From Chthoniobacteraceae bacterium (lineage in GTDB: Bacteria > Verrucomicrobiota > Verrucomicrobiia > Chthoniobacterales > Chthoniobacteraceae): a DNA stretch of 24,004 bases. The notes beneath the pieces were generated by a model. It was not told the DNA's origin. It was given only the letters and a program-made list of their open reading frames with translations, and did no database searches. The position numbers and the translations under genes are program-made. Location of the stretch: assembly GCA_031409335.1 (NCBI GenBank), contig JANNWY010000062.1, forward strand, positions 1 through 24,004, in the 5' to 3' direction. Positions 2 through 21,105 of this stretch are shown here, piece by piece; positions within the stretch are counted from its first letter, which is position 1, and every line of letters starts with the position of its first letter.

Positions 2-850
2 AAATTCGTGCAGCAGGCGCTCGACACCTACCTGCACAAGAACCGCGAGACCGCCGAAATCATCCGCAAGAAAATCGAGGAGAACGAGCACGAGCGGAAG
101 GAACTCGCCGGCATCCGCAACATCGCCAAGGAACGCGCGAAAAAAGCCTCGCTGCACAACAAGAAGCTGCGCGACTGCCGCCTCCATCTCGGCGACAAAA
201 ACCCGCGCGCCGAGGAGAGCACGCTTTTCATCGTCGAGGGCGACTCCGCCGCCGGCTCACTCACCGCCACGCGCGACGTGCAGACGCAGGCCGTCTTCGC
301 GCTGAAGGGCAAACCGCTCAACACCTACGGCCTCACGAAAAAGGTCATCTACGAAAACGAGGAGTTCCACCTTCTCCAGGCCGCACTGAACATCGAGGAC
401 GGACTCGACGGCCTACGCTACAACCAGATCGTCATCGCCACCGACGCCGACGTGGACGGCATGCACATCCGCCTGCTGCTGCTCTCGTTCTTCCTGCAAT
501 TCTTCCCCGACGTCATTCGCAACAACCACCTCTTCATCCTGCAAACGCCGCTCTTCCGCGTGCGCAACAAGAAGGTCACACGTTACTGCTACAGCGAGCA
601 GGAGAAACAGGCCGCCGTCGCCGCGCTCGGCGCCAGCCACGAAATCACGCGCTTCAAAGGCCTCGGCGAAATCTCCGCCGGCGAGTTCAAGGACTTCATC
701 GGCGAGAACATCCGCCTCGACCCGATTAACCTCCACCACCTCTACAGCTCCGACGAACTGCTCTCGTTTTTCATGGGAAAGAACACGCAGGAGCGGCAGG
801 AGTTCATCATCGAGAACCTGCGCGTGGAGAAGGATCTGATCGAGGTGTGA
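2..850 (+). CDS. parE: DNA topoisomerase IV subunit B (GyrB/ParE family), 5'-partial
   Basis: TOPRIM motifs [31 protein letters not shown] and ITRFKGLGE; short C-terminus; the frame is open from the window start; parC lies downstream. Confidence 0.93.
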
Positions 851-2528
851 CCAGTTTTATTCCGTCCCAAAGTTCGCCACGGTCGAGAGCGGCAAGCATC
901 TCGTCGTTGATGGCGAGAAACTCGGGGACGGGAACCATCCGATATGCTTTTACCGAAAAGACATCTTCGATTTCGCCAACTGACTCTGCGGCGCGACGTG
1001 CTTTACGCAGAGCATCTCGGGCCGCAACGAGGTCGCCGCTGCACGCGAATGCGATGTGCATTGCCTGCCACTGATTCGCTTGCATGGGCGAGGGCGCATC
1101 GCTCGAAGCACCGGCATGGCCAAAAAGCTCAGCGACTTGTTTCCACACATTCTCAACGATTTCTCGGGACGCACGCCGATGCGATTCGGCGGAGTTGAAG
1201 CCGTGGACAAGCATCATGGCCGGAGGCTCGCCATGCTCGATGGCATATTGCGTGCACTCGGAATAACACTTGCGAGCTTCCGCGTAGCGACCAAGCGCCA
1301 TGAGCGTGTGGCCGCGCTCGTGCTGGATACTGTAGCGACGTTCCGGCGAAAGAAGTTCAGGACGAGCAAGCAAGGCGTCAAACAGGGTGACAACGCGTTC
1401 CGGTTGATGTGTGCGGGTGTAATGGCTGGAAAGGAAGTTGAATGCGTCCTCGTATGCGGGATCGAGTTGGAAGGCTTTCTCAGCAAGCTCAACGGCCTTG
1501 GCGGTTTCGTTCCGCGCCACAGCAAAGCGAGCATGAAGGTAGATTGCCTCGGCTCGGTCGGCATAATCGCGTTCGAGAACGGCGCTTAGGCGTTCCAGTC
1601 GGATCGAATCGCCTTCAGAAATCGCCTCGTCGGATTGTTCAATCAGGAAGTCGAGGCCGGTGCGATTGAACTTTGTGATCTGCTCACACAGTCGTTCGTA
1701 ATCGCCGTTGATGGATTGTCTCGTTTGGCCGTCTTCGAGGACGAACAGCTTTTCGCTGAGGCTGGCAGGTGAGTAGTAGCGAATAGTCGAACTGATCTTC
1801 ACCCCGAGCAACTCGGCGGCGGCGTCCATTCGCTCGGTAAGTTGACTGCGCCTATCCTGCGCGCGTTTGTCGGTTGGGACACCGCGTTGGTCTGGTGGAA
1901 GGTTTGGAACCGGCGTTGCGACAAAGTGAATCTGGGGAATGCGATCCGGGTCGGCCTCGCGGATGCTTTGAGAGACGGTCGCGATCCCGCGGACATTCTG
2001 ATCGTTCAGACCGAAGAGCATCATCACCAAATCTGGGAACTGCGTGGTGCAGACGCCTCCGACCTCTGTGAGCCCGGTTCGCGAATCTACGAATACGTAA
2101 TCCGGCTGGAAATGGTGGTCGATGGCGGCTTTCCAGTTGGCGAAAAACGGCGCACCGAGGCCGCTTTCGTAAAGCTCCGCCCAGTTGATGTGTGCGAGTT
2201 GATGGTTGTAGGCAGCGTCTCTCCGGCCGGCGGGCATGACGCAGAGTTGGCCGCGTAAAGGGCCGGGCAATTCGCAGCGGTGAACGTAAGGCTGAATATC
2301 CGGCGCTGCCTTGTGGCGGAGGAATTCAGAGACGTATTCGACAACGCCAGACTTTGCCGCGGCTGGTGCGAATTCCGCGAAGCTGTCGAGGCCAGGTGCT
2401 TCGAGATCGAAATCAATCAGCAGCACACGACGTCCACGTTTGACGAGAAGTGCGGCGGTGTTGGCGAGAGCGAGCGACCGACCGACCCCTCCCTTGTAGG
2501 AATAGAAGGTGACCCAGAATGGCTTCAT
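807..2528 (-). CDS. ParA/MinD-like ATPase (KGGVGR-motif variant) fused to C-terminal TPR repeats, 573 aa
   Basis: N-terminal [12 protein letters not shown] (deviant Walker A with Arg for Lys), [11 protein letters not shown] and YVFVDSRTG (Walker B). TPR-like helices follow ([36 protein letters not shown]). ATGA overlap with the upstream gene. Confidence 0.88.
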
Positions 2529-3088
2529 GCTGCTTTGCCGAATAGGGCTTTTGCTGGGTTGAAACGAGGCGTCTCACGCATCGCTGGCGCGCTCCGCGCA
2601 GTCAGGTCGGGAAATGCCGCACAGAAGTCGAACTCGACGGTCGCCATCGCGAGCCGGTCGAGCCGGTTCTTCTTTTTCCACCCGCGCTCACGCAGCCACG
2701 CGAACGCCTCGGGAAACTCTGCGAGGGCACGCAGGTAGTAGCCCATTGAGCGGCTTGGAACTTGGTTGCCCTTTTCCCAGCGGTGATAGGTCTTGCCGCC
2801 GAGGCCGAGGATTTCACTCATTTCGGTCTGATCCACGCCGAGGTCTTCGCGGATCCGTTCGAGTTCTCGCGGCGTGAGTTGCTCGGTCTGCTCGGCGATG
2901 GCGGCGTCCACTGCCGCCGCGGCGTCCACCGACAGCAGGATCTCGTCGCAATGATCGCAGACCTCGACGAGCAGGTTTGGGACAACCACCTTCACGCCCC
3001 CGGAGGCGGTGACGGTGTAGTCGATGCGCTGCTCCCGGAACTGTCCTGCATCGCAGGCCGGGCAGAGATTGGCGGTTTCGGTTTTCAT
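2525..3088 (-). CDS. MqsA-family type II antitoxin (Zn-ribbon + XRE HTH) with ~54-aa C-terminal extension
   Basis: CPAC...CDHC zinc ribbon; LTPRELERIREDLGVDQTEMSEILGLGGKTYHRWEKGNQVPS is an XRE HTH in the MqsA arrangement. Confidence 0.9.
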   Translation of the reverse strand: MKTETANLCPACDAGQFREQRIDYTVTASGGVKVVVPNLLVEVCDHCDEILLSVDAAAAVDAAIAEQTEQLTPRELERIREDLGVDQTEMSEILGLGGKTYHRWEKGNQVPSRSMGYYLRALAEFPEAFAWLRERGWKKKNRLDRLAMATVEFDFCAAFPDLTARSAPAMRETPRFNPAKALFGKAA

Positions 3089-3092
3089 GGCT

Positions 3093-3482
3093 TCATTTGG
3101 GAAGTCTCGGCTTCCAGTTGTCGTGATTGTGAGCGTTGCAGAGGATGACGAGGGTTTGATTTCTCAGGCGAATCTCGACATAAACGTCTTCATCCTCGTC
3201 ATCGGAATCAGGGTCGAGACCGACGTTTGCGCTGAACAAAAGTGTGTCGGGTGGCGGGTTTTGAACTGGCTTGTGAAAAAGGCGGTAGCCGACTTCTAAG
3301 TGCGCCTGAATGGCCTTGACGAAAGCAACAGTGGTCATCTTCCAAGGTCCAACGACGTAGTTGTGCGCCCTGCCGGAAATCTTGTAATGTCGCTGTTCGA
3401 GTGCGGCCAAGATGGCGTCGATTTCTTCATCGGAAGCAGTCTTCGGTAAGTCTGACTCCGGTATGTATCGGCATGATTTCAT
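3093..3482 (-). CDS. Putative MqsR/RelE-fold toxin, 129 aa
   Basis: Lies 4 bp upstream of the MqsA-type gene (toxin-first order). YKISGRA and the C-terminal DVYVEIRL..LVILCNAH strand pattern recall MqsR/HigB/DUF4258 RNases. Similarity is weak, so the call is mostly contextual. Confidence 0.62.
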   Translation of the reverse strand: MKSCRYIPESDLPKTASDEEIDAILAALEQRHYKISGRAHNYVVGPWKMTTVAFVKAIQAHLEVGYRLFHKPVQNPPPDTLLFSANVGLDPDSDDEDEDVYVEIRLRNQTLVILCNAHNHDNWKPRLPK

Positions 3483-3499
3483 TTCCCGTCAACGGTAAA

Positions 3500-3569
3500 A
3501 GTGCCGAAAGGCACTCGTTGGCGCAAGTTATGAATTGCGAAATGATTACACGAGTGCTGAAAATCACTC
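3500..3569. promoter_or_regulatory. Two copies of a palindromic operator-like site upstream of the toxin gene
   Basis: AGTGCCGAAAGGCACTC (3500-3516) and AGTGCTGAAAATCACTC (3553-3569) match at 14/17 positions; each has AGTG-N8-CACT dyad symmetry; they are 53 bp apart. Confidence 0.6.
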
Positions 3570-3866
3570 ATGTGCCGACTCTCCCTTCCTCGATCTCTTT
3601 CTGTGTGACGTCCAAGAAGACGTGGCATTCGCAGCGCGGATGGCTTCGGCACGGATATCTGCGGAGATTTCCCGCAGGAGAATCGCGGTTTCACCTGGCG
3701 GCAACGCCCCTTCCGCCCCGCGCCGCCGAAAGGCAGCGTGCGCTTCGTAATGGGCGATGCGCGCAACTGCCAACGGCACACCGGGAGCCGCCAGCCCTTG
3801 GAATTGCGCAGAGTCGGCCTCCATCGCGTAGAGCTTCACGAGGGCCGACGTGTCCCATTGGCTCAT
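3564..3866 (-). pseudogene. vapC: 3'-truncated VapC (PIN domain) toxin
   Basis: Starts MSQWDTSALVKLYAMEADS (PIN D-T-S-A-L motif) 2 bp after the upstream gene's stop. Recognisable similarity ends near residue 78 and the C-terminal PIN acidic motifs are absent. Confidence 0.72.
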
Positions 3867-3868
3867 CG

Positions 3869-4150
3869 TCAGCAGCGATCTTCGCGGAGTTCGTCGAATA
3901 TCTGCTGAAGCGGCGGCCCCACCTTGCCCGTCGCGCCGCGTTCGCGGATTTTCTGCAATCTTTCCAGCCATGCACGATGGTCTGCCGCTGTTTCCGCACG
4001 CGCAGGCTCCGCCTCATCCACCACCACCTGCCCGCCCTCCGCTGCCATACGATAGCCCCGATGCGGCCCCGGATGCGGCCCCGGATGCGGCACCATCGAA
4101 GCCGGCGGGCGCAGCGCGCCCGTTTCGTCCGCTTCGAGAATTGTGCTCAT
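3869..4150 (-). CDS. Putative VapB-like antitoxin, 93 aa
   Basis: Small ORF directly upstream of vapC; AbrB-like N-terminus (ILEADETGALR); C-terminus LQQIFDELREDR is typical of VapC antitoxins. Confidence 0.65.
   Translation of the reverse strand: MSTILEADETGALRPPASMVPHPGPHPGPHRGYRMAAEGGQVVVDEAEPARAETAADHRAWLERLQKIRERGATGKVGPPLQQIFDELREDRC
4060..4091. repeat. 12-bp tandem repeat (GATGCGGCCCCG x2.7) inside the antitoxin
   Basis: Read directly; encodes PHPGPHPGPH on the minus strand. Confidence 0.85.
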
Positions 4151-4157
4151 GGCTCGG

Positions 4158-4187
4158 AACGTAGCATGCGAGACATGTGCGGCTCAA
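4158..4187 (-). promoter_or_regulatory. Candidate sigma70 promoter giving a leaderless antitoxin-vapC transcript
   Basis: Minus strand TTGAGC-N18-TACGTT with TGn before the -10; the ATG is 7 nt downstream; no Shine-Dalgarno. Confidence 0.4.
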
Positions 4188-4302
4188 GCGTTACATCCTC
4201 GCTGGCGGCAGCCGGTGTTCCTGCTCGACTCGCTTCGTGGCGGTCCATCCATTTCCCTCGACCGCGATGGCATGGCTGTGAAAAAAGTTCCGAACACGCT
4301 CA

Positions 4303-6486
4303 ATGCCAAAACGACCGAACCAGCCTGACGGAAAACCCTCGAAGAAACTGATCGCGAGCGATCAGCCGGAACTGCCTTTGGATACCGCACCCGCGCCTGC
4401 ATCCGATGAGCCGATTGCGGTGACTGCGGAGCCGAATGGGAATGGTGCAACCGATGCGCCTGCGGAGGTGCAGGCGGAGGCCGTGGCTCCGCGGCGCAAG
4501 GAGGGCGAGAAAGTGCAGGATGAGCAGGCGCCGCTGGCGCAGAGCTACCGCAATTGGTTCCTCGACTACGCGAGCTACGTCATCCTCGACCGCGCGGTGC
4601 CGCACATTGATGACGGATTGAAGCCGGTGCAGCGGCGCGTGCTGCATACGCTTTGGGACATGGACGACGGGCGCTTTCACAAGGTCGCGAATGTCGTCGG
4701 CGCGACGATGAAGCTGCATCCGCACGGCGACGCTTCCATCGGTGCGGCGCTGGTGTCCATCGGGCAGCGGGGGTGGCTCATCGAGCCGCAGGGGAATTAC
4801 GGCAACACGCTCACGGGCGACGATGCGGCGGCTCCGCGTTACATCGAGGCGCGGCTCACGGCGTTCGCGAAGGACGTGCTTTTCAATCCGAAGACGACGA
4901 CTTGGCAGCTCAGCTATGACGGGCGCAACAAGGAGCCGATCACGCTGCCGGCGAAGTTTCCCGTCGTGCTGCTGGAAGGCACGGACGGCATCGCAGTCGG
5001 GCTCTCGACGAAGATTCTGCCGCACAATTTCAACGACCTCTGCCGCGCGGCGATCAATCACTTGCAGGAGAAAAACTTTCGCATTCTCCCCGACTTTCAC
5101 ACCGGCGGCACCGCTGATTTTTCGGAATACAACGACGGCGAGCGCGGCGGAAAAGTAAAGGTCCGCGCGACGATCGAGGAGCGGTCGAAGTATCTGCTCG
5201 CGGTCACGGAGCTGCCCTTCAGCGTGACGACGACTTCGCTGATTGATTCGATCCTCGCGGCCAACGCGAAGGGGAAGATCAAGATCAAGCACGTCGATGA
5301 CAACACGGCGGACAAGGTCGAGATCCTCATTCATCTGCCAGCGGGCGCGGAGCCGAAGAAGGTAATCCAGCAGCTTTACGTTTTTACGAACTGCCAGGTG
5401 CAGCTCAATCCCTCCGCGTGCGTCATCGTGCGCGATCCGCAGACCGGCGACGACAAGCCGCGTTTCCTCGGCGTGCGCGACATTCTCAAAGCCAGCGTCG
5501 ATGCGACCAAGGCGCTGCTCAAACGCGAGCTCGAGATCAAGCTTGGCGAGCTGGAGCAGCAGTGGCATTGGGACTCGCTCGAACGCATTTTCATCGAGGA
5601 ACGCATCTACCGAAACATCGAGAAATCGAAGACGTGGGAGAGCGTGCTTGAAGAAATCCGCAAGGGTTTGAAGCCGTTTCTCGCGCAGCTCCGTCGCGAG
5701 GTCACCGACGAAGACATCGTCCGCCTCACCGAGATCCGCATCAAACGCATCTCCGCCTACAATCGCTTCCAGGCCGACGAGGCGATGAAGAAAATCGAGC
5801 AGGGCATCAAGGAGACGAAGGCGCTTCTCAAGACGCTCACCGCTTACACCGTCGCGTGGTTCGAGATGCTTCAGGCGAAGTATGGCAAGGGCCACAAACG
5901 CCGCACGAGCTACGACGAGATCGCGCAGATCGACGCGTCGCAAGTGGTGTCCGCGAACCAGCGCCTCTACGTGAATCGCCAGGACGGCTTCATCGGCCTG
6001 AACTGGCGGCAACACGAATTCATCACCGAATGCACCATCCTCGACAGCGTCCTCACCATCATGAAGGACGGCTCGCTCAAAGTCGCGAAGGTCGCCGACA
6101 AGGTCTTCATGGGTCGCGAGATCATCCACATCTCGATTTGGCCAAAGGACGGCGACACGAACTTCTACACGATGGTCTATCAGGACGGCGAAACTGGGAA
6201 GGCCTTCGCCAAGAAATTCCAGATCGGGGGCCTTTCGCGCGACAAGCTCTACCCGCTCGCGAAGAGCGAGAACTCGCGCATCATTTTCCTGCACATCGCT
6301 GCTTCGGAAAAAGAGATGCCGAAGACGCTCCGCGTATCACTCGATGGCCGCAGCGGAGCACGCGTGCGTGAGCTGGATTTCGAACTAGGGGCGGCTCCTG
6401 TCAGCTCCCGCACCTCGAAGGGCCTCACCATCACTAAGTGGGCGGTAAAGGAAGTGACTGTGCGAAGGGTGAAAGTGTCGCTATAG
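4303..6486 (+). CDS. parC: DNA topoisomerase IV subunit A (GyrA/ParC family), 727 aa
   Basis: FLDYASYVILDRAVPHIDDGLKPVQRR, HPHGDASI and the catalytic AAPRYIEARL; short CTD with no GyrA box seen; ~65-aa low-complexity N-terminal extension. Confidence 0.94.
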   Translation: MPKRPNQPDGKPSKKLIASDQPELPLDTAPAPASDEPIAVTAEPNGNGATDAPAEVQAEAVAPRRKEGEKVQDEQAPLAQSYRNWFLDYASYVILDRAVPHIDDGLKPVQRRVLHTLWDMDDGRFHKVANVVGATMKLHPHGDASIGAALVSIGQRGWLIEPQGNYGNTLTGDDAAAPRYIEARLTAFAKDVLFNPKTTTWQLSYDGRNKEPITLPAKFPVVLLEGTDGIAVGLSTKILPHNFNDLCRAAINHLQEKNFRILPDFHTGGTADFSEYNDGERGGKVKVRATIEERSKYLLAVTELPFSVTTTSLIDSILAANAKGKIKIKHVDDNTADKVEILIHLPAGAEPKKVIQQLYVFTNCQVQLNPSACVIVRDPQTGDDKPRFLGVRDILKASVDATKALLKRELEIKLGELEQQWHWDSLERIFIEERIYRNIEKSKTWESVLEEIRKGLKPFLAQLRREVTDEDIVRLTEIRIKRISAYNRFQADEAMKKIEQGIKETKALLKTLTAYTVAWFEMLQAKYGKGHKRRTSYDEIAQIDASQVVSANQRLYVNRQDGFIGLNWRQHEFITECTILDSVLTIMKDGSLKVAKVADKVFMGREIIHISIWPKDGDTNFYTMVYQDGETGKAFAKKFQIGGLSRDKLYPLAKSENSRIIFLHIAASEKEMPKTLRVSLDGRSGARVRELDFELGAAPVSSRTSKGLTITKWAVKEVTVRRVKVSL

Positions 6487-8074: not shown

Positions 8075-9292
8075 CTATGGGCGCTTGGTGCCGGTGACGG
8101 ATCGACCGGAGCGGCCGCGCTTGGGTTTGTCGAGGTCGGTGCGGTGCTCGATTTTCGCGACCGTGCCGCGTTTCAAATACTGCTCGCGCAAAGCGGCGTA
8201 GTCGGCGTCGCGACGATCGTAAAGGCGCTTGAGTTTGCGTGGCGCGGCTTTGCTCAAAGCGTAGGCGGTGATGATCGGGAGCGTGATCGTGGAGTCGGCG
8301 TAGCAGACCACGCAGTCGGGCAGATTTTCGGGGTCGATTTTTCCCCAGCTCACGGCTTCGCCGGGTGTCGCGCCGCTGAGGCCGCCGGTGTCGGGGCGGG
8401 CGTCGGTGCATTGCAAAAAGTAGTCGTGCCCGCGTTCCTCGATGCCCATGACTTCCTGAATCTGCGGCTCGGTTTGCAGCATGAAATTTTTCGGCGATCC
8501 GCCGCCGAGGATGAACACGCTCGAAGTCGCACCGCCGGATTTCGCGGCATAGACGATTGCAGCGGTTTGGTTCACGTCGCGGTTCACGTCGATCAGCAAC
8601 TTCGAATCGCGCAGCGCCATCGCGGCGACATTCATGCCGATGGAACTGTCTCCCGGAGAGCTGGTGAAAATCGGCACGCCAAACTGATACGCGGCGGCGA
8701 GCACGCTGGTTTCCTTGATCCCCAGTTTCTTTTCCCGCGCGTGGACGTAGCGCCCGAGCAGGTGGTGAAATTCGTCCGTCGCCATCGTCTTCTGAAACTC
8801 CGGCCCCTGGATGACCTGGCGCACGAACGCGTCGGTATCGAGCAGCACGTCGTAGTCGAAGAGCACGTCGTAAATGCGGATGATGCCGTCGCGGCGCAAA
8901 TCCACGTCATTCAAAAACGGCGAGCCCGCGTGCAGCGACATGCCGAGCCCGAAGTGCAGATCGTGGTAAAGATTCGCGCCGGTCGAAATCATCCAATCGA
9001 CAAAGCCCGCCTTCATCAGCGGCACGATCGCCGAGCGTCCGAGCCCGGCGGGCGTGAGCGCGCCGGTGAGCGACATACCGACGACACCGCGACCCGCGAT
9101 CATTTTGCCAGTGAAAAGCCGGCACGCCTCGGCGAGACGACCGCCGTTGTAGGCTTTGAAGGTAGTGTCGATCAGGTCGGCGACCTTCATTCCCTTGCGG
9201 ATCGGCTCGGGTAAAAGGCGCGGGAACTTCTTGTTCAGAGAACTCATGCGGGCACCGAAGTTAGCGGGTGACTTGATTCGGTCAATGGGCAT
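8075..9292 (-). CDS. speY: Deoxyhypusine synthase-like protein, homospermidine biosynthesis (SpeY) type; start may be 9247
   Basis: [42 protein letters not shown] and [23 protein letters not shown] (catalytic Lys motif). Confidence 0.88.
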
Positions 9293-9362: not shown

Positions 9363-12300
9363 TCAGCGAATGCGCTCCACTTTATAGAAGCGGCGCGCGG
9401 CACCTCCCGCGGCGGCGGGGAGGTCGGTATCCGTCCAGCTCATCGGCCCGCCCGCAGCACCGGCGGCGAGCGGGCCGGTGGCGAGTGGGGTCCATGCGAT
9501 CAGGTCGGGCGACTGCCGGATTTCATAGACGCCGTGCGGCGCAGCATCCCATGCGAGCGTGATCGTCGTGAACGGGGTATTGCGCGTGATCGCGACGACC
9601 AGCGGGCGGGCCGCGGTGGTCCAGTTGCCGATGGGATCGGTGCCGGCGAGGAATTCCGCGGCGTTCGTCTGGCCGTCACCGTCGAAGTCATTCAAGCCAT
9701 CGGCGATGCCATCGGCGACGAGCGAGCCGTTGTTGCCGGTGCTGTCGGGACTGTCGGCGCGGAAGGGATTTTGCACACCGGGAATGGCGGCGAGCAGATC
9801 GCGCGTTTCGTCGTAGTCGAGCAGGTTGTCGCGGTCGCGCTCGATGCCCATGCGGCGTCCGGTGTCGCGGGCAGTGGCGGTGAAAAGGACGGGCTCGGCG
9901 GCGGACGCGCGCGCGAGGATCGCGGCGAGCGTTTCGATGATGCCGGCCTGATCGCTTTGGAAGTTGTTCGCGCTCAAATAATGCCAGCCGCGCGGCACAC
10001 CGTTCACATTGGCTTTCGCGAAGAGATCGATTGCGGCGGCATTGGCCAGCGTGATGAGCGCCGTGAGCCGGGCGAGGTCCGTGGCCGGAAGCGTGGCACC
10101 GATGAGCAGCGCCTGGCGACCCACGGCGGCGTGCGCATCCTGACTCAATGTGCCGGGCGGCTCGAGGGCATCCACTGGCGCGCCAAAGCCGGAGCCGCCA
10201 AAGCTCAACACCAGCGCGACGAGGTCCGCGACTTCCTGATCGTTGTTCGGATTAAACGCGCCCTCGGACAGAAACCGCGACAGCGAATCCACCGAGCCAT
10301 CGTGCGCGAAACCAAACCCCGACAGGCTGAGCGGCTGGGTGAACTCGCAGCCGACCTTTTCATACATGTTGCGGAGTTGCGGGGTCTTGAACGCCTTTTG
10401 CGAAGAACCATCCACCGACACCAGCGCGTGATGCCGCTCGCCATTGAAGCCGGGCGCGATGTCCGTGAAAGTCGCCCCGGTCAGCCGCTTGTCCGCGCCC
10501 ATGCCGGTGGGCAGCGTGTGGCACGTCACACACGCGAAGGCGCCGCGATCGATGCCGCGCACCAGCGGGCGGTAGAGCGTCGTCAAGCCGCGTTGCGCAT
10601 TGCCATTTGGCATTGGCTGGCCCGCGCCGCCAAAGCGCCCGGATTTGAAGTGCCCCGGCAGCGGCAGATTTGTCGGCAGCGTGTTGTCCTGATTGCGGAA
10701 AGGATTTGGCGGAAAGGCGATGGTCGCGAGGAAATCCTCGAACTGCTGCATCTCCGTCGGCGTGAGCAGCATGTCGTCGCCGAGCAGGCCGACGAAGGCG
10801 CCGTTAAACTCCTCGATGCCATCGCGGTCGCCGCGCCAGTGATGCGGCTCCTTGCCGATGATGTCCTGCATCGTCTGCGTCGTCATCGGCCCCTTCATCG
10901 GATGAAAGTTGGTGAACCCGGTATTCAGCCCCGGGATGTTCGCGCCGAGATTGTGCCGCGGACTGCTCACCGTTTTCACCGTGCCGGATGGGTCGCCGAG
11001 ATCCCACGCCAGCCGGTCCAGGCGGGCATCCGCGTGGCACGAGGCGCACGACGCCTGGCCGAGCCCGGAGGTGCGCCGCGTATCATACAGGAAAGGCCGG
11101 CCGCTCTTGATCGCCGCCGGGGTCGGATCGAAAAACGGCACGCGCGCAGTCTCCGTTTCCGTCGTCAGATTCACGATGGAAAGACTGCCTTCAAACCGGT
11201 TCAGCACGTAGAGCACGCCGCGCGCTTCATCCAGCGCGAGCCCCGCCGGTCCCTGGCCGACCGCGATTGGCACCGCATTGAGCCGCGCGCCGTTCGCACC
11301 GATGACCGCCACATTGTTCGATCCCATGCCGGCAACGTATCCGCGCAAGCCGTCCGCTTTCCAGACGATGGCTCGCGGATCGCCGACCGACTTGTCGCGC
11401 TCCGTCTGCGCCACCGTCGGCGTCGCATAAGTCAGGTGCGGATTCAGGTCCACCGCGCTCGGCGAACCCGGCGTCGCTGGCAGAAACCAACCCATGCGCA
11501 CGCGCACGAATTTCCCGTTCACGTTTGGCTCAAAGCGCACCTCATTCGTCGCCTCGGTGCCCACCAGCGTCACCCGGCCCGTCGCGGGATTCACGCCGAG
11601 CGCCATGCAGAGATTCATCATGCGCCGCGCATACGTCACGCCGCGCGTCGCCGCGTCGATGATCGCCACATCGTTGTCCACCACATCCCAGCCGGGCATG
11701 CGGCCCGACAGCGCGGCATTGGCCCCGCTCACCAGCGAAGTCCAATTGCGCGCATTGTCATCCATCCACGCACCCGCCGCGTTTTTCTTCACGATCAGAC
11801 CCACCGGTGGCGCCACGGGATTCGCCGGATTCCGCAACGGCGCGAAAAGCGTGCCGCTATTGGGCGGCGGATTCGCCCCGCCGTACGGCCCCGACGCATC
11901 GCTCACCGCGTTGGGCGGAAATGAGATCGTCGTCCCATCGCCGCCACCCGCCAGCAGCGTGCTGCCGTTCCCACTTTCAAAGAACGCCGCATACACCTTC
12001 GTCCCATCCGGGCTTACCGCCAGACTCCGCGGATCTTCGCCCGCGATCAGCACTTCATTCGTCACCCCGCCCGCCAGATTCGCCGGATCGAAAAGCTGGA
12101 GCTTGTTCACCTGTGAGCACGCCACCCACGCCCGCTGCGGCGTGCCCGCGAAGACCACATCCACCGGCTCATCCGCCGTCTGCAGCGTCGCCGTCACCGC
12201 ACACGTCACCGCATCCACCACGCTCACCGAATCCGACGTGTGATTCGCGACCCACAGCTCCGTCGCCGTCCGCCAGCGCACGCTCACCGGGTCCAGCCCC

Positions 12301-12509
12301 GTCGTGATCGCCGCAGCCAGGACCGGCGTGCCAGACACCAGCGAATAGAGCAGCACGCGATTGTCCGCCGTGTGACACACCGCCAGCACCTTGCCGTCCG
12401 GACTCAAGTCCAGCGGATGCACCGGCGGCACCTCAAAATTCACGAAGTCTCCAGCCACCAGCGGGACGGCCAGAAACGGGACGAGGAAAAGCGCGCGGAG
12501 GGACATCAT
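9363..12509 (-). CDS. Exported YVTN/YncE beta-propeller + di-heme cytochrome c peroxidase (bCCP/MauG)-like protein
   Basis: Signal peptide MMSLRALFLVPFLAVPLVAG at 12509 (the ORF track starts at 12626). YVTN-type blades; two CxxCH motifs (CASCH, CVTCH); HWRGDR; FKTPQLRN...HDGS; C-terminal DFDGDG..E..AGTDP...RRFYKV module. Confidence 0.85.
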   Translation of the reverse strand: MMSLRALFLVPFLAVPLVAGDFVNFEVPPVHPLDLSPDGKVLAVCHTADNRVLLYSLVSGTPVLAAAITTGLDPVSVRWRTATELWVANHTSDSVSVVDAVTCAVTATLQTADEPVDVVFAGTPQRAWVACSQVNKLQLFDPANLAGGVTNEVLIAGEDPRSLAVSPDGTKVYAAFFESGNGSTLLAGGGDGTTISFPPNAVSDASGPYGGANPPPNSGTLFAPLRNPANPVAPPVGLIVKKNAAGAWMDDNARNWTSLVSGANAALSGRMPGWDVVDNDVAIIDAATRGVTYARRMMNLCMALGVNPATGRVTLVGTEATNEVRFEPNVNGKFVRVRMGWFLPATPGSPSAVDLNPHLTYATPTVAQTERDKSVGDPRAIVWKADGLRGYVAGMGSNNVAVIGANGARLNAVPIAVGQGPAGLALDEARGVLYVLNRFEGSLSIVNLTTETETARVPFFDPTPAAIKSGRPFLYDTRRTSGLGQASCASCHADARLDRLAWDLGDPSGTVKTVSSPRHNLGANIPGLNTGFTNFHPMKGPMTTQTMQDIIGKEPHHWRGDRDGIEEFNGAFVGLLGDDMLLTPTEMQQFEDFLATIAFPPNPFRNQDNTLPTNLPLPGHFKSGRFGGAGQPMPNGNAQRGLTTLYRPLVRGIDRGAFACVTCHTLPTGMGADKRLTGATFTDIAPGFNGERHHALVSVDGSSQKAFKTPQLRNMYEKVGCEFTQPLSLSGFGFAHDGSVDSLSRFLSEGAFNPNNDQEVADLVALVLSFGGSGFGAPVDALEPPGTLSQDAHAAVGRQALLIGATLPATDLARLTALITLANAAAIDLFAKANVNGVPRGWHYLSANNFQSDQAGIIETLAAILARASAAEPVLFTATARDTGRRMGIERDRDNLLDYDETRDLLAAIPGVQNPFRADSPDSTGNNGSLVADGIADGLNDFDGDGQTNAAEFLAGTDPIGNWTTAARPLVVAITRNTPFTTITLAWDAAPHGVYEIRQSPDLIAWTPLATGPLAAGAAGGPMSWTDTDLPAAAGGAARRFYKVERIR

Positions 12510-12652
12510 CCGGCAGCCTACCCGACGCCGATACGAGATCAACGACCGTGTTTTTTCCACGAGCTGCCTCAAATGGAATGACCCTGGCAGATCCGAATTG
12601 AAAACGAAGCGCCGCCTCCCTGACATCGCGCACGCAAGAGTGGAGGTAAACT

Positions 12653-13189: not shown

Positions 13190-13296
13190 GTAGCGCAGGC
13201 GCCCCGCCTGCCGGCAAGTGGTGCCGGCGCCTCGCCTGCACACGGCGGGCAGGGTGCCCGCCGGACGAACCGGCAGCCGGGGCGGCTGCGCTACTT
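13188..13296. repeat. GTAG-family REP doublet (REPIN/BIME-like), 109 bp
   Basis: 27-bp terminal inverted repeats with 2 mismatches (AAGTAGCGCAGGCGCCCCGCCTGCCGG / CCGGCAGCCGGGGCGGCTGCGCTACTT); each arm is itself a GC hairpin after GTAG; further small hairpins lie inside. Confidence 0.8.
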
Positions 13297-13316
13297 CCCT
13301 AAACCCGCCCCACCCC

Positions 13317-14744
13317 ATGAAAACACTCCTCTCCGCCATCCTCGCACTCTGCGCTGCCACCTTGGCCCGCGCCGACCTCGTCACCGACTGGAACGAAACC
13401 GCGCTGGCCGCGATCCAGCTCGACAAAACCCCGCCACCCAAAGCCGCGCGTGCTCTCGCCATCCTGCACACTTCGATTTACGACGCGGTGAACGGCATCA
13501 CGCCAACGCGCGAACGATACCTCGTCCCCGGCAAACCCGCCGGCACTGCATCGCCCCAAGCCGCAGTCTCGGCAGCGGCGCATCTCGTCCTCGTCCGCCT
13601 TTTCCCCGCGCAGCAGGCCACTCTCGACGCCACGCACCACAAGGCGCTCGCCGCGATCACGAACAGCCCGGAGAAAAACAACGGAATCCACTGGGGCGAA
13701 TGGGCGGCGAACATCATCCTCGTCGCGCGTTCGACCGATGGTGGGGAGGAAACCGTGACGCACATTCCCAAAGACGCACCCGGCGAATGGCAGCCGACAC
13801 CACCGGCCTCCGCGCCCGCGCTCCTCCCGCAGTGGGCAAAGCTCGCCTGCTTCGCCATGACCAGCGGCTCGCAATTCGGCCCGCCGCGCATGCCCGCGCT
13901 CACCATCGCCGTGTATGCGGTCGATTTTAATCTCACCAAACAACTCGGCGCAAAAGACAGCCCCGCGCGCACCGCCGAGCAAACCGCCATCGCGCAGTTC
14001 TGGGCTGACGGTTCCGGCACCGTCACGCCGCCCGGCCATTGGAACGTCATCGCTCGCGACCTCGCCACCCAGCGCAAGCTTTCGCTCGCGGAAAACGCGC
14101 GCCTCTTTGCCATGCTGAATATCGCCCTCGCCGAGGCTGCGATCCTCTGCTGGGACTGCAAATACGACTGCCGCTTCTGGCGGCCCATCACCGCGATCCA
14201 AAACGCCGACACCGACAAAAACCCCGCGACCGAAAAAGACCCCGCGTGGACGCCCTTGCTCGAGACGCCGCCCTTCCCCGAATACACCTCCGGCCACAGC
14301 ACCTTCAGCAGCGCCGCCGCCACCGTCCTCGCCGCGTTCTTCGGCTCGGATGAAATCGCGTTCTCGACCACGTCCGATGCGATGCAGGGATTCTCGCGCA
14401 ATTTCCACTCCTTCTCCGAAGCCGCCGCCGAAGCCGACCTCAGCCGCATCTTCGGCGGCATCCACTTCATGTCCGCAAATCAACAGGGCCTCGCCTCCGG
14501 CGCAAGGCTGGGCACATACGTGAGCGAGAGTTTTCTGAAAGCCCGGCCGGGCGCAGCCGCAAACTCATCCCGACCTGCGCAGGCACAAAGCGACCCGCCG
14601 ACCCCAGCGCCGCAAATCGCAACACCGGACGCGACACCGCCGGCAACCGCCGCAGTCGAACCAGAGGCTCTATCGCCACCAAACCCCGCGCGAAGAATCG
14701 TCGCCACCGGCGGACAGGAAACATCGAAAGGAGAAACGCCATGA
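13317..14744 (+). CDS. Exported vanadium-dependent haloperoxidase / PAP2 superfamily protein
   Basis: Signal peptide MKTLLSAILALCAATLARA; active-site motifs WDCKY...WRP, PPFPEYTSGHS and SRIFGGIHF; Pro/Ala-rich C-terminal tail. Confidence 0.88.
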   Translation: MKTLLSAILALCAATLARADLVTDWNETALAAIQLDKTPPPKAARALAILHTSIYDAVNGITPTRERYLVPGKPAGTASPQAAVSAAAHLVLVRLFPAQQATLDATHHKALAAITNSPEKNNGIHWGEWAANIILVARSTDGGEETVTHIPKDAPGEWQPTPPASAPALLPQWAKLACFAMTSGSQFGPPRMPALTIAVYAVDFNLTKQLGAKDSPARTAEQTAIAQFWADGSGTVTPPGHWNVIARDLATQRKLSLAENARLFAMLNIALAEAAILCWDCKYDCRFWRPITAIQNADTDKNPATEKDPAWTPLLETPPFPEYTSGHSTFSSAAATVLAAFFGSDEIAFSTTSDAMQGFSRNFHSFSEAAAEADLSRIFGGIHFMSANQQGLASGARLGTYVSESFLKARPGAAANSSRPAQAQSDPPTPAPQIATPDATPPATAAVEPEALSPPNPARRIVATGGQETSKGETP

Positions 14745-17700
14745 GTCTCACAACGAGCGAGCGCAATATCCGGGTAGCACGCTCGTCCCGAGCGTCGGTC
14801 GAGGCGTCCCGCCTCGACGAACTTCCCAAGATGTCCAAACCGGAACGAACGCCGCAACCAGATCGAACGTCCTCGAAAGATCATTTCGGCGGGACGCCGA
14901 AACCAACGCGCGAGACGCGCGTGCTACCCGAAACATCCCCCGCCGCAAAACTTCAACGTTGGAAGTTGAAAGTTCGACGTTCGACGTTCAGCCCCGCGCA
15001 GCGGCCCCTCGTTTTCCTCTTCCTCTTTCTCCTAATCTTCCTCCCCTCCGCCAGCACCGCCACCCTCACCCCCGCCGCCCCCCAAACCCTCACCGAAACC
15101 CTCACCGAAACCCGCATCACCCGCACGGTCTTCGAGTACGTCATGCAAATCAGCGTGACCAACTCCGACACCAAGACCGCCCGCGGCGTCCTCTCCACCG
15201 TCACCAGCACCTCCCCGCGCACCACCATCGTCGAAGGCAGCGTCAGCTTCGGCAGCATCGCCCCCGGCCTCGCCGCCGCGGGCGCGGACACCTTCACCCT
15301 CCGGCACGATCGCACCGTGCCCTTCGATCCCGCCGTCTTGCAGTGGGTCTTCGTGAAAGTCCCCGCCGATCCCACCGTCGCCGCGCCGTCTTCCCCCACC
15401 ATGCTCACGAGCGCCACCGTCACCGGCACCACCGATCCCGGTGCGGGCATCGAAATCGTCGGCGGCGCGCAGACCATCACCGGCACCTCCCACGCCACCA
15501 CTGGCGTCTTCAACCTCAGCGTCCCCCTGCAAACCAACCGCCTCAACCCGCTCTTCGTCACCGCCTTCAACCCCGCGGGCCGCAGCGCCCCGGTGCCCGC
15601 CGCCGTGCTCCAGGACGCGCAGCCGCCCTCGCTCTTCATCGACTTCCCGAAAAACGGCGACCAGCTCACCAACGACACCATCGTCGTCGGCAGGCGCGTC
15701 GGCGACATGCTCAGCGGCTACCAGGGCCTCACCGTCTCGGTCAATGGCCAGCCCGCCACCGTGAATGTCGGCATTGGCAACAACGGCACCTTCGAGCGCA
15801 GCGCCGTCCCGCTCGTTTTGGGAAGTAACACGATCACCGCCACCGCGACCGACATCAACGGCAACGCGATCACGCTGCCCCCGATCACCGTCCATCGAAT
15901 CCCGATCACCGGCCCGCGCATGATCGCCCTCTCCGGCGACATGCAAAAGGCCCCGTGCACGCCCGCCTCGCGCAACCCCTCGTCGTCAAAATGACCAACG
16001 CCGACGGCACCCCCTTCCCCGGCAAGATCGTCACCTTCACCGTCACCCGCAGCGATGGCCGCCTCGTCGCCGACCCCGCGCAAACCGCGCCCGGCACCCT
16101 GCTCCTGCAAATCCCCACCGACGCGAACGGCCTCGCCAAAGCCTGGTGGAACGTCGGAGCCGACGCCGGCCGCGCGAACAACCGCGTCGCCGTCACCAGC
16201 AAAGACATCGCCGACACCATTGGGTTCTGCGCCTCCGCCGACCCCGGCCCCGTGCATCAGATCAACATCGGCAGCGGCAACAACCAGAAAGCCGAAGCCG
16301 GCGGCCCCGCTCCCGAGCCCCTCCGCGCCTGGGCCAGCGACATGTGCAATGGCATCAATAACCTCCCCATCACCTTCACCGTCAAACAGGGCGGCGGAAA
16401 AGTGAACGGAGCCAACACCGCCACCGTGAATTCCGGCATCACCGGCCACGCGCAGGTGATCCTCACGCTCGGCCCAGACGCCGCCACCAACGTCATCGAA
16501 GCCAACTACCCCGGCAACCCCAACCTCCCCGCCACCTTCATCGCCTACGGAGTCGTCCGAGACCCCGCCAAACCCACCACCTTCACCGGCCTGGTCTTGG
16601 ATAACACCAGCAACCCCATCGGCGGAGCGACGTGCAAATTAGTAGTCCAAGGCTTTAGCCTGTCCACCTTCAGCGATGCCCACGGCCGTTTCCGAATCGA
16701 CGCCACCACCCCGCACCTGCCGAACACCCCGCTCACCGACCTCCCCAACGGCCCCGCCCACCTCTTCGTCGATGGCCTAACAGCGACAACTCTCAACGGA
16801 GCCGCCGTCCCACCCGGCACCTACCCCCCGCTCGGCTACGTCACGACAATAGTGCCCAACGCCGAAAACTCCCTCCCCACGCCCGTGCTCCTGCCCTGCA
16901 TGAACGTGCATAACGCGAAGACCTACGACGGCACCACCGACCTCGTGCTCACCTGCGAAGGCATCGCCGGCCTCAAGATGACCATCAAAGCCGGCTCGAT
17001 GCGCAAGCCCGACGGGTCTCTCGTCACTCCCACCAACACCGCCATCGTCTCCCTCAATCAGGTCCACCACGACCAAATCCCCATGCCCATGCCCGACGGC
17101 GCCAGCCCGCCGTTCGCCTGGACCCTCCAGCCCGGCGGCGCGCACTTCGATCCCCCCGTGGCCATCGAATACCCCAACATGAGCGGCCTCCCCGCCGGAG
17201 CCATCGCCTACTTCCTCTCCTTCAACCACGAGACCGAACGCTTCGAAATCGTCGCCAGCGGCCACGTCACCCCCGACGGCTCCACCATCCTCAGCGATCC
17301 CGGCGCAGGTCTCACCATCGTCGGCTGGGGCTGCAATTGCCCGCCTTATTCGGTGACAGGAGCAGTTTCGTATAACAGCTGCGCCTTTCGAGCCGAAGAC
17401 TACCGTTCTAGCGATCAGCAAATCCCCAATGACTCTCCCAAAAAGCTGTTTAGTACGTCACTTGCATGCGTAGGTTCCGGACTTTGCGACAGCCTGAATA
17501 ACGGCGACTTTCAGGATCCAGATTGGCTCCTGAATTTGAATCGTGTACTCTACGAAAGATGGAAGATACGAAACACGCTCCTCCATTGGCGCATCGCCGA
17601 GGCCGACTGTATCCTAAGTTCACAGTTACTCCCACCGGCTGTGTCCAAATGGGTGTGCATGTTTGATTATGTCGTTGCGCACGACTACTTCGATATGCAA

Positions 17701-20700
17701 TTTGCTTTAGCGCAAATTGGATGTGGGACCGATGCGGATTGGGCGAAGATGGGCCAAATTGTTGCCGCTTGTTCACCTGATAACCTGAACGGCGTCCCGG
17801 AGTTTATTGGCGCGAACCTTAATAGACTGCGGTTGCAGTGCAACTTTCCGAAAGCTTTCGTGACCGCCGTCGCTAGGCCGTTGCTCCAAGCGGGCGGAGG
17901 AGAGATTTCGGTCGTGACTTCCAACGATCGCCAGCCAATTAGCGATGCGATGATCGCGTTGATCGATCTCGATAACGATCGGCTCGTGACATCAGGACTT
18001 AGTGATGTGTCTGGGATTGTGACCTTCGGCGCGCTGCCATCCGGCAACTATTACTTGATAGGCATCCACGAAACCGCCGGAAGTGTAAATGCTCCCGTAT
18101 CACTTACCGGAGCCGAAAGCCTTCAAGTTCCACTCAAGCTCGTTCCAAAACAAGCCGACGTTGCCTCGGACCCTTTAACCTCTGCGTCACTGACTATTTC
18201 AGCGGCAGGCCAATCGACGGTGGTGGACGAACGCGGTACGTTTCAGATTTTGAATGTATCCTCGCCAGACCAATTTGGACCGGGCGGACCAGGAACGGCA
18301 CCCGACTTTATCGCCGATGATTACATCCGTGTTATTGGCGTAAGCAATACGGGAAGTGCAAACCGTTACGCGTTCAGCGAATTCCTTAAGATTCGCCAAG
18401 CTAACACGGTTCCGGTTTCCACTTTTACCTTTACCGACACGCCACATAAGAAGCCGGACATGCTCATGGCGGTGCCGGCTGCTGCGATTTTGACCACCAT
18501 CGGCCAAACAACGCAGGTCCGCGTCACGGCCACTTACGCGGACAACAGCACCGGCGATGTCTCACCCGCCACGAGCTGGACCAGCTACCGCAGCAGCAAC
18601 CCCTCCGTCGCCACGGTGAGCAAGGACGGCCTCGCCACCGCCACCAGCCGGGGCATTGCGTTCATAACCGCGGTAAATGAAGGAGCGACCGCAGTAACGC
18701 AGATTACCGTCGTGCCGGGCGACCCGCTCACCACCGTCAAAGGTTTTATGCGCTTGCAGGATGGAACGCCGGCTACCGGAGTAACGGTGTCCATTTCTGG
18801 CCTTGGCCTCACGGCGGTAGTGCAGGCCGATGGGAGCTTCATCTTTGCCAGTGTGCCGACGACCTTGGGACCACTGACTTTGAGCGCGGTGGTTGTCCAA
18901 GGCAGTGGTCGGTTGGTGGCCCTGGCTATGAACCTCAGCTCGGTCGCTGGTGGTGTGGTGGATGCGGGAATCCTCACGCTGCTGCCGTATTCGGAGAGTG
19001 TGCGAATCAAATCCATCGCCGCGGGCAACGGTCAGACCGTGGCGCTCAAGATCGACGGCAGCCTTTGGGCTTGGGGTGCTAATGGTACCGGGCAACTGGG
19101 CGATGGTACTACGGGCAACAAGCTCAGTCCGGTGCGGATTGGCACGGCCAGCGACTGGGCTGAGGTCGCCGCAGGCTCCGGTCACACCCTAGCGCGCAAG
19201 ATCGATGGCAGCCTTTGGGCTTGGGGATTTAATAACAGCGGGCAACTGGGCGATGGTACTACGGTCCAGAGGCTCAGCCCGGTGCGGATTGGCACGGCCA
19301 GCTACTGGGCTGAGGTCGCCGCAGGCTCCGGTCACACCCTAGCGCGCAAGATCGATGGCAGCCTTTGGGCTTGGGGTGCTAATAGCACCGGGGCACTCGG
19401 CGATGGTACTACGGGCGACAAGCTCAGCCCGGTGCGGATCGGCATGGCCAACGACTGGACCGAGGTCGCTGCAGGCTCCGCTCACACCCTAGCGCGCAAG
19501 AACGACGGCAGCCTTTGGGCCTGGGGTGCTAATCGCTCCGGGCAACTGGGCGACGGCACCGGAATCAACAGAACCAACCCGGTACGGGTCGGCACTGCCA
19601 ACGATTGGGCCGAGGTCGCCGTGGGCAGCTCCAGTGGTGGCTTTTCCGATCAAAGTTACAACGTGGCGCGTAAGAGCGACGGCAGCCTCTGGGCTTGGGG
19701 TGCTAATCGCTCCGGGCAACTGGGCGACGGCACCACGGGTAACAAGCTCAGCCCGCTGCGAATCAGCACCGCCAACGATTGGATCGAGGTCGCTTCGGGC
19801 GAAGGTCACACGGTGGCACGCAAGACTGATGGCAGCCTCTGGGCATGGGGCTCGAATAATCGCGGGCAACTTGGTATCGGCCCCAGTTTCGCCATGCTCA
19901 GCCCGGTGCCGATAGCTATAGACAACGACTGGGCCGAGGTTGCCACAGGCTGGCGTCACACCGTGGCGCGTAAGACAGATGGCAGCCTTTGGGCTTGGGG
20001 TTGGAACGTTTACGGGCAACTGGGCGACAGCACCACGGTCCAGAGGCTCAGCCCGGTGCGCATCGGCACGGCCAGCGATTGGGTAGACGTTGCCGCGGGC
20101 TCCGCTCACACGGTGGCGCGCAAGATCGACGGCAGCCTTTGGGCTTGGGGTGCTAATGGCACCGGGCAACTGGGCGACGGGACCACGGTGGGCAAGCTCA
20201 GCCCGGTGCGGATCGGCGCGGACAACGATTGGGCTGAGGTTTCTCCCGGTCGGGATCTTGCCTCAGATTACACCGTGGCGCGCAAGATCGATGGCAGCCT
20301 CTGGGCCTGGGGTGCTAATAGCACCGGGCAACTGGGCGATGGTACTACGGGCAACAAGCTCAGCCCAGTGCGGATCGGCACAGCCAGCGACTGGGCTGAG
20401 GTCGCCGCAGGCTCCGCTCACACCTTGGCGCGCAAGACCGACGGCAGCCTCTGGGCCTGGGGCGATAATACCTCTGGCCAGCTCGGGATTGCGAGTTTGA
20501 TGGTCGGCCCGATCGGCGGCACGTTCGACTGGGGTCCACCCGCGACCGCTCCCGCACCCACACCGATTCCCGAAGTTTCCCCGCTGCTCGACAGCGACGG
20601 CGACGGCATCCCCGACGCACAGGAACTCCTCGCCGGCACCGACCCGCACGATCCCGCCAGCGTCCTGCGCCTCAGCCAGCTCGACAAGACCGCCACCGGG

Positions 20701-20889
20701 ATGCAGATGCAGTTCCCGACGCTGACCGGCAAGACCTATCGCCTCGAATACACCGACGACCTCACCTCCGGGAAGCGGCGCCCCCTCACCGAACCCATCC
20801 CCGGCGACGGCAAGCCCGTGATCGTCGAAGACCCCGCTGCCACCACCCGTTCGCAGCGCTTCTACCGGCTCAAGCTCATTCAGCCGTAG
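14741..20889 (+). CDS. Large exported multidomain protein (~2049 aa if repaired): Ig-like and carboxypeptidase-regulatory-like domains, Cys-rich insert, Big_2, 10 RCC1 repeats, C-terminal module; split by a 1-bp frameshift near 15945-15948
   Basis: AAAGGAGA RBS and ATGA overlap at 14741; hydrophobic [18 protein letters not shown]. ORFs 14741-15994 and 15955-20889 join as [20 protein letters not shown] if one base is added to the AAAA run. Confidence 0.8.
14771..14930. repeat. REP/MITE-like element, ~160 bp, within the 5' end of the large gene
   Basis: Perfect 12-bp terminal IR CGGGTAGCACGC / GCGTGCTACCCG; internal hairpins GTCGAGGCG-TCC-CGCCTCGAC and TTTCGGCG-GGA-CGCCGAAA. Confidence 0.8.
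14957..14991 (+). repeat. Degenerate heptamer tandem repeat, 5 units
   Basis: CGTTGGA AGTTGAA AGTTCGA CGTTCGA CGTTCAG. Confidence 0.7.
19005..20490 (+). repeat. Ten coding RCC1 repeats, ~150-bp unit
   Basis: Ten DGSLWAWG motifs; long stretches are identical at DNA level between units. Confidence 0.92.
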
Positions 20890-21105
20890 CAACTATGAAA
20901 AGCGACCGCGATGCCTGCCCATTTTCGATTGTCTGATGGCTAACGCCCATGCGGCGCATCTCGGAGTGCCCTTCCTGCATCAACGGTGCCTTTCGTGCCG
21001 AATCACCATGCCACCTTTTCGGCTCCCCGCTCCGCAGGCGGTTCGGGGACAGATTCTAGCATCGAAACGTTAGCCGTCTTCGCTCTTGATACGACCGTTA
21101 CACCC

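Follow-up and report, generated by a model that had tools for sequence, protein, structure and literature searches.

Why should a type II toxin-antitoxin (TA) operon carry, as its third gene, a large ATPase fused to tetratricopeptide repeats (TPRs)? The question is raised by a cassette on a 24,004-bp contig of a Chthoniobacteraceae bacterium (assembly GCA_031409335.1, contig JANNWY010000062.1; this whole stretch is referred to as the window), which encodes on the reverse strand a 129-aa putative endoribonuclease toxin of the MqsR fold (RelE/BECR; positions 3093-3482), a 187-aa MqsA-family antitoxin with CxxC zinc-finger and helix-turn-helix (HTH) domains (2525-3088), and a 573-aa protein (807-2528) in which a ParA/MinD-family ATPase (residues ~1-290) precedes a TPR-like helical solenoid (~291-560). 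The three co-oriented genes of the initial annotation, a reading of the sequence alone, were recovered as open reading frames (ORFs) 3482-3093, 3088-2525, and 2528-807, with a 4-bp gap between the toxin and antitoxin genes (3089-3092) and an ATGA overlap of the antitoxin and ATPase genes (2525-2528). The MqsR-fold toxin, the tailed MqsA, and the KGGVGR ParA-TPR protein travel together in a fixed order and with a palindromic operator. We propose, with confidence and doubt evenly balanced, that the cassette is a mobile, self-repressed three-component abortive-defence system of the TA-ParA class, in which the ParA-TPR protein would grip the antitoxin tail, sense a phage cue, and free an mRNA-cutting toxin. 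An anti-phage or anti-plasmid role, taken by itself, is probable.

The MqsR identity of the toxin is based on fold, because no library family recognizes the 129-aa ORF: it has no match in Pfam, NCBIfam, PADLOC, or the PDB sequences, it falls outside Pfam PF15723 (MqsR), and an MqsR cluster ranks only seventh (score 0.89) in the atlas. Nine close homologues and 37 profile matches among 50%-cluster representatives were identified. The AlphaFold2 model (43 sequences; predicted local distance difference test, pLDDT, 93) has E. coli MqsR (3hi2_D) as its top structural match in an exhaustive VIA search of 48,161 chains (Z 10.0; root-mean-square deviation, rmsd, 2.4; 91 aligned; 9% identity), and the runners-up, RelE-family toxins, reach Z 5.7 at most, which bears out the earlier description of this ORF as MqsR-like. 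In a Foldseek search with the same model, RelE of Pyrococcus ranked seventh; NTF2-like rows were rejected (TM about 0.3, rmsd 7-8). Residues H61, K71, Y101, H118, and H120 are invariant over the 43 sequences (K71 and Y101 in 43 of 43 where aligned), and K71 and Y101 line up with K56 and Y81, the catalytic residues of canonical MqsR (PMC9636575), the profile alignment alone being non-significant (probability 1%). The protein is very probably a toxic RNase. With MqsRA of E. coli and Pseudomonas (3hi2; PMC9636575; PMC5422877) the cassette shares the toxin fold, apparently the positions of the catalytic Lys and Tyr, the zinc-finger-HTH antitoxin, and an upstream palindrome; however, the toxin, at that 9% identity over the structural match, is 30 aa longer and has an added invariant H-x-H, the antitoxin is tailed, and a third gene is present.

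The antitoxin matches PF15731 (E 2.3e-14) and TIGR03830 (78 bits, cut-off 61.8), and the ATPase matches NF047398 (KGGVGR; 163 bits, cut-off 90, E 8e-48). The latter protein carries SYKGGVGRS at residue 10 (Walker A), DFDLEAPG at residue 39, and the Walker B motif YVFVD, and it displays the ConB2 signatures, namely a Ser opening Walker A, an Arg replacing the Walker A Lys, and PG after DxD. Three Pfam TPR models score just above cut-off over residues 327-429, and the structural model (pLDDT 90.7, the last ~13 residues being of low confidence) matches MinD/FlhG/Soj and TPR solenoids. Conservation is highest in the ParA core (0.75), lowest in the first TPRs (0.44, the most variable part), and 0.58 in the last helices. 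No SecB match was found for the third gene in Pfam or NCBIfam, which separates it from the chaperones of toxin-antitoxin-chaperone (TAC) systems. PADLOC PDC-M28B matches the ParA domain (E 2.5e-31, residues 6-177); membership in PDC-M28 was rejected, as no PDC-M28A match occurs in the scanned window ORFs and PDC-M28A is found at other loci. The KGGVGR ParA domain is thus shared with the PADLOC PDC-M28 and TIR-ParA systems, whereas those loci carry PDC-M28A or TIR partners and other flanking domains.

The initial annotation had suggested searching for ATPase-TPR homologues behind mqsRA-like pairs, and the order turned out to be conserved across phyla. Among 151 genomes of the family, 17 ParA matches were found in 15 genomes; in all six matches of at least 500 aa (own copy included) the toxin and MqsA genes lie upstream, arranged as in the cassette, and these near-full-length ParA-TPR genes are patchily distributed (5 of 151 genomes). 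The 11 matches restricted to the ParA domain have no MqsA upstream, and several of them are paired with TIR or PDC-M28A proteins. Among metagenome loci, MqsA lies upstream in 12 of 12 and the toxin in 11 of 12, the twelfth contig beginning too close; seven of the 12 represent one lineage. A sample of 400 genomes of the phylum yielded one further cassette. On plasmids of Rhizobium phaseoli, Massilia forsythiae, and R. gallicum (the three best distinct loci among 31 plasmid records), MqsA directly precedes ParA in all three opened, and an unlisted ORF of 119-128 aa precedes MqsA on each (L034:3109-3468, L035:3042-3404, L036:3069-3455). The toxin hidden Markov model, Pfam, and NCBIfam recognize none of these three proteobacterial ORFs, which may constitute a second toxin-like family and are treated as toxins solely for their position and appearance. 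No relatives of the cassette were found in 50,697 phage records or in viral contigs (either alignment), and the genome has no paralogues of the toxin, antitoxin, or ATPase elsewhere. Other KGGVGR ParAs (L010:658-1470; L016:376-1182) come after a helical protein of 270 aa, which in L010 lacks a Pfam match and is itself preceded by a 201-aa ORF, a possible toxin.

Could this association be mere co-transcription, with MqsRA acting as an ordinary TA pair and ParA-TPR as an independent effector that shares its promoter? A ParA has been argued to be the effector itself in other systems (10.64898/2026.10.19.760177), the support for binding between tail and ATPase is weak (see below), and 33 of 120 close MqsA homologues, of undefined context, lack one of the two tail motifs (the NP-type pattern). 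However, every near-full-length ParA-TPR locus examined has MqsA, the genes are translationally coupled across lineages, and the canonical two-gene MqsRA among our controls (L037) has a tailless MqsA. We consider this explanation very improbable, and the three genes almost certainly form a functional unit.

The cassette also has its own operator-like sites, as the earlier reading of the sequence had it: the palindrome AGTGC-N6-GCACT lies at 3500-3515, 18-33 nt upstream of where the toxin gene starts, and a second copy with one mismatch was found by sequence scan at 3553-3568. Only two exact copies exist in the 7.9-Mb genome, and the chance of a site with at most one mismatch in 150 bp is 0.003. 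Exact copies precede six homologous toxins (L006, L022, L023, L032, L033, and L082), tandem AGTAT variants of the palindrome occur in L007-L009 and L020, and none within one mismatch is present in eight control TA/TAC loci. By analogy with MqsA, which represses via a palindrome (PMC5422877), the site is a probable binding site of the antitoxin; such binding is inferred only, because the known MqsA palindrome (ACCT-N3-AGGT) differs in sequence.

The initial annotation knew of no described system with this composition, a claim that does not stand. Li, Burroughs, and Aravind (bioRxiv, October 2026; 10.64898/2026.10.19.760177) computationally predicted "TA-ParA" systems, and section 24 of their preprint describes type II TA modules with a ParA most commonly fused to TPRs, including a BECR subtype with MqsR-MqsA, distinguishes them from SecB TACs, and casts the ParA as a switch that a sensor triggers, the same sensor-switch model as the one considered here; a ternary protein complex is predicted as well. 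As far as the accessible text of the preprint goes, the composition of our locus is identical (type II TA with MqsR fold and HTH antitoxin, ConB2 ParA-TPR, conserved order). Its main text makes no mention of an antitoxin tail or chaperone-addiction domain (ChAD) for TA-ParA, although figures or supplements may list the subfamily or the locus, and its sections on TA-ParA make no mention of an operator; the accessible part of PMC7159879 contains nothing on TA-ParA. What the present analysis adds to an already described composition is the conserved operator palindrome and two tail motifs at the ChAD position.

These motifs lie in the antitoxin's C-terminal tail of 50 aa (residues 138-187; positions 2528-2677), a candidate docking handle for ParA-TPR: F159-P160-x-L162 (FPxL) and R175-F176-N177-P178 (RFNP). 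In an 80-row alignment F159, P160, and N177 are conserved at 94, 93, and 95%, respectively, and the linker between the motifs at 22% on average; among 120 antitoxin homologues, 104 carry the FP-type and 87 the NP-type pattern. Three MqsA homologues of this subfamily (P0181, P0184, and P0191) have a second HTH-like domain in place of the tail. The resemblance to TAC systems, first drawn for the gene order, thus extends to a 50-aa tail on the antitoxin. MqsRAC, HigBAC, and CmdTAC share with the cassette the order of toxin, antitoxin, and third gene, a C-terminal extension of MqsA, and a third protein that is a proposed phage sensor (PMC5105189; PMC9519451; 10.1101/2024.02.24.581848), and MqsRAC protects against T2 (PMC9519451); however, our third gene encodes a 573-aa ATPase-TPR rather than SecB.

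This resemblance allows a TAC-like chaperone addiction, in which the tail would destabilize MqsA and the toxin would stay neutralized only while ParA-TPR holds the antitoxin; a phage protein competing for the TPR groove would then release the toxin, in the manner of lambda gpV and HigC. MqsA-type antitoxins of the phylum were collected with TIGR03830 as a control, from which loci of HTH-only or other families were dropped (L050-L066, five of them inspected, and L084, L087, L093, L094, L097-L099, L108, and L109). Among the 25 control antitoxins without a ParA link, 21 precede a SecB-like gene (14 by Pfam SecB at E<=0.015, seven by look). The tail of the cassette occupies the ChAD position, and its motifs are aromatic, like those of ChADs (PMC5105189; 10.1101/2024.02.24.581848). 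However, ChADs are highly variable (PMC5105189), whereas the motif residues here are 93-95% conserved; the motif pattern was recovered from 19 of 19 PVC-type antitoxins with a ParA link, and the NP pattern is loosely matched by one of the 25 without a ParA link, the motifs being otherwise absent from SecB-linked tails. The -AA end of the window's MqsA speaks for chaperone addiction; such an end, however, occurs in only 2 of 22 ParA-linked tails versus 11 of 25 tails without a ParA link. An -AA end is a ClpXP degron. Nor would chaperone addiction explain why the ATPase motifs are so strongly conserved, and we regard it as rather unlikely.

TAC-like operons, composed of a small toxin-like ORF, a tailed HTH antitoxin, and a SecB-like gene, are common in the phylum (L040-L043, L047-L049, L083, L089-L092, L095, L096, L100, and L102-L107); many of their antitoxins have no zinc finger, and among the three of their toxins that were scanned none has a library match.

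A history of exchange between the two kinds of third partner is suggested by the antitoxin phylogeny. The approximately unbiased (AU) test rejects monophyly of the 22 ParA-linked antitoxins (75 HTH columns, p 0.024; long branches), and each ParA-linked group adjoins different SecB-linked antitoxins in the HTH tree, which suggests swapping of the third partner, a point in favor of the TAC-like reading, and hints, on sequence grounds, at two separate pairings of MqsA-type antitoxins with ParA. We tentatively extend this to a "ParA-addiction" module, in which antitoxin tail and third gene would be swappable: a two-motif peptide may have replaced the ChAD, docking on the ParA-TPR protein or stimulating its ATPase, and SecB may have been exchanged at least twice for an NTP-switched TPR sensor. 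A ParB- or MinE-like arm acting on the ATPase was considered as an analogy for the tail, beside TPR binding. The predicted complex of the tail (residues 131-187) with the whole ParA-TPR protein, the toxin being left out, scored 0.50, against 0.12 for the best control; at least 81% of contacts recur between runs, the partner pLDDT is at least 53, and no interface was returned. In our benchmark, 116 of the 157 solved pairs and 2 of the 215 mismatches attained the mark. The complex model lends weak support to docking of the tail on ParA-TPR. On balance, we slightly favor the view that the tail binds ParA-TPR.

Homologous cassettes do lie close to defence loci, in keeping with the defensive role suggested at the outset. 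Two lie inside BREX operons, between pglX and pglY in one case and between brxC and pglX in the other (L003:8601-11231 and L024-L030:3045-5923), a location that suggests a role as backup effector or stabilizer. Elsewhere, a CBASS type III operon directly follows the cassette, type II restriction endonuclease genes precede it at two loci and a type III restriction-modification system at one, and PDC-S22 lies beside it at one more. The same surroundings could be read as those of an addiction or maintenance module, whose post-segregational killing would stabilize islands, plasmids, or costly defence operons such as the BREX operons in which the cassette is embedded, and in which ParA would make the release of the toxin depend on loss or copy number of the DNA. 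The occurrence on plasmids and the patchy distribution (5 of 151 family genomes) fit this reading, as does the site in the present genome, a 3,451-bp insert (851-4301) between the housekeeping genes parE and parC that also holds a second, decayed TA pair. However, a two-gene TA is enough for addiction, a sensor accounts more readily for the variability of the TPR region, and related KGGVGR ParAs pair with TIR or PDC-M28A proteins; we consider a maintenance role improbable.

The insert was delimited by comparison with the relative G012, in which the parE-parC spacer is 41 bp; parE is 95.5% identical to G012 at the nucleotide level, and parE and parC are neighbours in all four relatives fetched. 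One unitig (793-4596) bridges both junctions with 0 differences, its run being possibly the source of the window, and positions 1020-4123 are covered by another run of that study. Neither a target-site duplication nor an integrase was seen at the insert, a sigma-70 promoter scan returned 0 sites, and terminators occur only at chance level. The 3' end of the ATPase gene shares 44 nt (807-850) with the 3' end of parE on the opposite strand; because close homologues end near 564 aa and the model is of low confidence there, we treat this overlap as incidental read-through. The codon usage of the cassette had been described as unlike that of parE and parC, which is correct locally: GC content at third codon positions (GC3) is 0.60, 0.75, and 0.62 in the toxin, mqsA, and ATPase genes, versus 0.88 in parE and 0.81 in parC. 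Against the genome as a whole (median 0.758 over 3,483 long ORFs), however, only the toxin (lowest 5%) and the ATPase (lowest 8%) are low, and mqsA is ordinary.

In the mechanism that we propose, MqsA would bind and block the toxin and repress the operon through AGTGC-N6-GCACT, and the tail motifs would dock on ParA-TPR, bringing all three proteins into one complex. A phage-derived trigger may be recognized by the variable N-terminal TPRs (291-435), upon which ParA would change its nucleotide state and the tethered antitoxin would be pulled off or released for degradation; the free toxin would then cut mRNA and the infected cell would stop. We estimate it marginally more likely that the third gene acts as an activator than as a stabilizing chaperone. 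Several observations weigh against this proposal. Foldseek returned no match to the toxin model at E<=0.001. The palindrome is missing from L024-L030 (a BREX-I lineage) and from the three proteobacterial loci, and neither motif is present in any of the three proteobacterial ParA-linked tails. The 19 antitoxins with the motifs fall into one clade (89/66) and so do not count as independent cases, and the pattern was drawn up only once they had been inspected; for both reasons the 19 of 19 shows, at the level of sequence, selection on the motif within a lineage and not repeated coupling. Among the benchmark pairs that attained the mark, scores of 0.60 or below belong to 18 of the 157 solved pairs and to both passing mismatches. 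When the one metagenome lineage is taken once, leaving 16 distinct loci, a PADLOC defence gene is adjacent at seven, a raw count without a background rate; six, including the window, have no clear defence neighbour, and three are too short to judge. Literature searches found no experimental paper on TA-ParA.

The decayed pair (3564-4150, reverse strand), which we take from its motifs to be of the Phd/YefM-PIN(VapC) kind, lies upstream of the cassette in the same insert and matches by tblastn an intact-looking pair on G000:C153; no Pfam or NCBIfam match was found for it. In its Phd/YefM-like ORF a 12-bp sequence is tandemly repeated over a short stretch (4056-4094), and its PIN-like toxin ORF lacks a C-terminal part present in the G000:C153 paralogue. 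The parC gene (4303-6486, compared with L073) is ~87% identical to its G012 counterpart, and its first 200 bp are only 67% identical, versus 95.5% for parE; this low 5' identity could be due to a fast-evolving N-terminus or to recombination with the insert. Further genes of the window encode a deoxyhypusine synthase-like protein (8075-9292, reverse), a beta-propeller/cytochrome c protein (9363-12626, reverse), a PAP2/vanadium haloperoxidase-like protein (13218-14744, forward), and surface proteins with RCC1 repeats (15955-20889, forward) and NHL repeats (20986-23874, forward); a low-GC stretch lies at 17500-18500.

Cassettes of this kind are easily missed, even inside BREX, because PADLOC 2.0 holds no model for toxin or antitoxin and the Rhizobium plasmid records that were opened annotate MqsA and ParA but no toxin gene. 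The present locus is a compact, intact example of TA-ParA with an operator and with mutable residues in each part, namely K71 and Y101 of the toxin, F159/P160 and R175/N177 of the tail, the Walker A and B motifs, and the TPRs at 291-435, and its proteobacterial plasmid relatives suit work in E. coli. If the tail is a docking handle, it would explain how an ATPase-TPR controls a type II TA pair and would tie TA-ParA to the logic of TAC systems. If, beyond this, the tail proves to be a ParA-addiction tail, TAC and TA-ParA would be one design, composed of a warhead, a tail, and a sensor, that may be portable onto other TA pairs.

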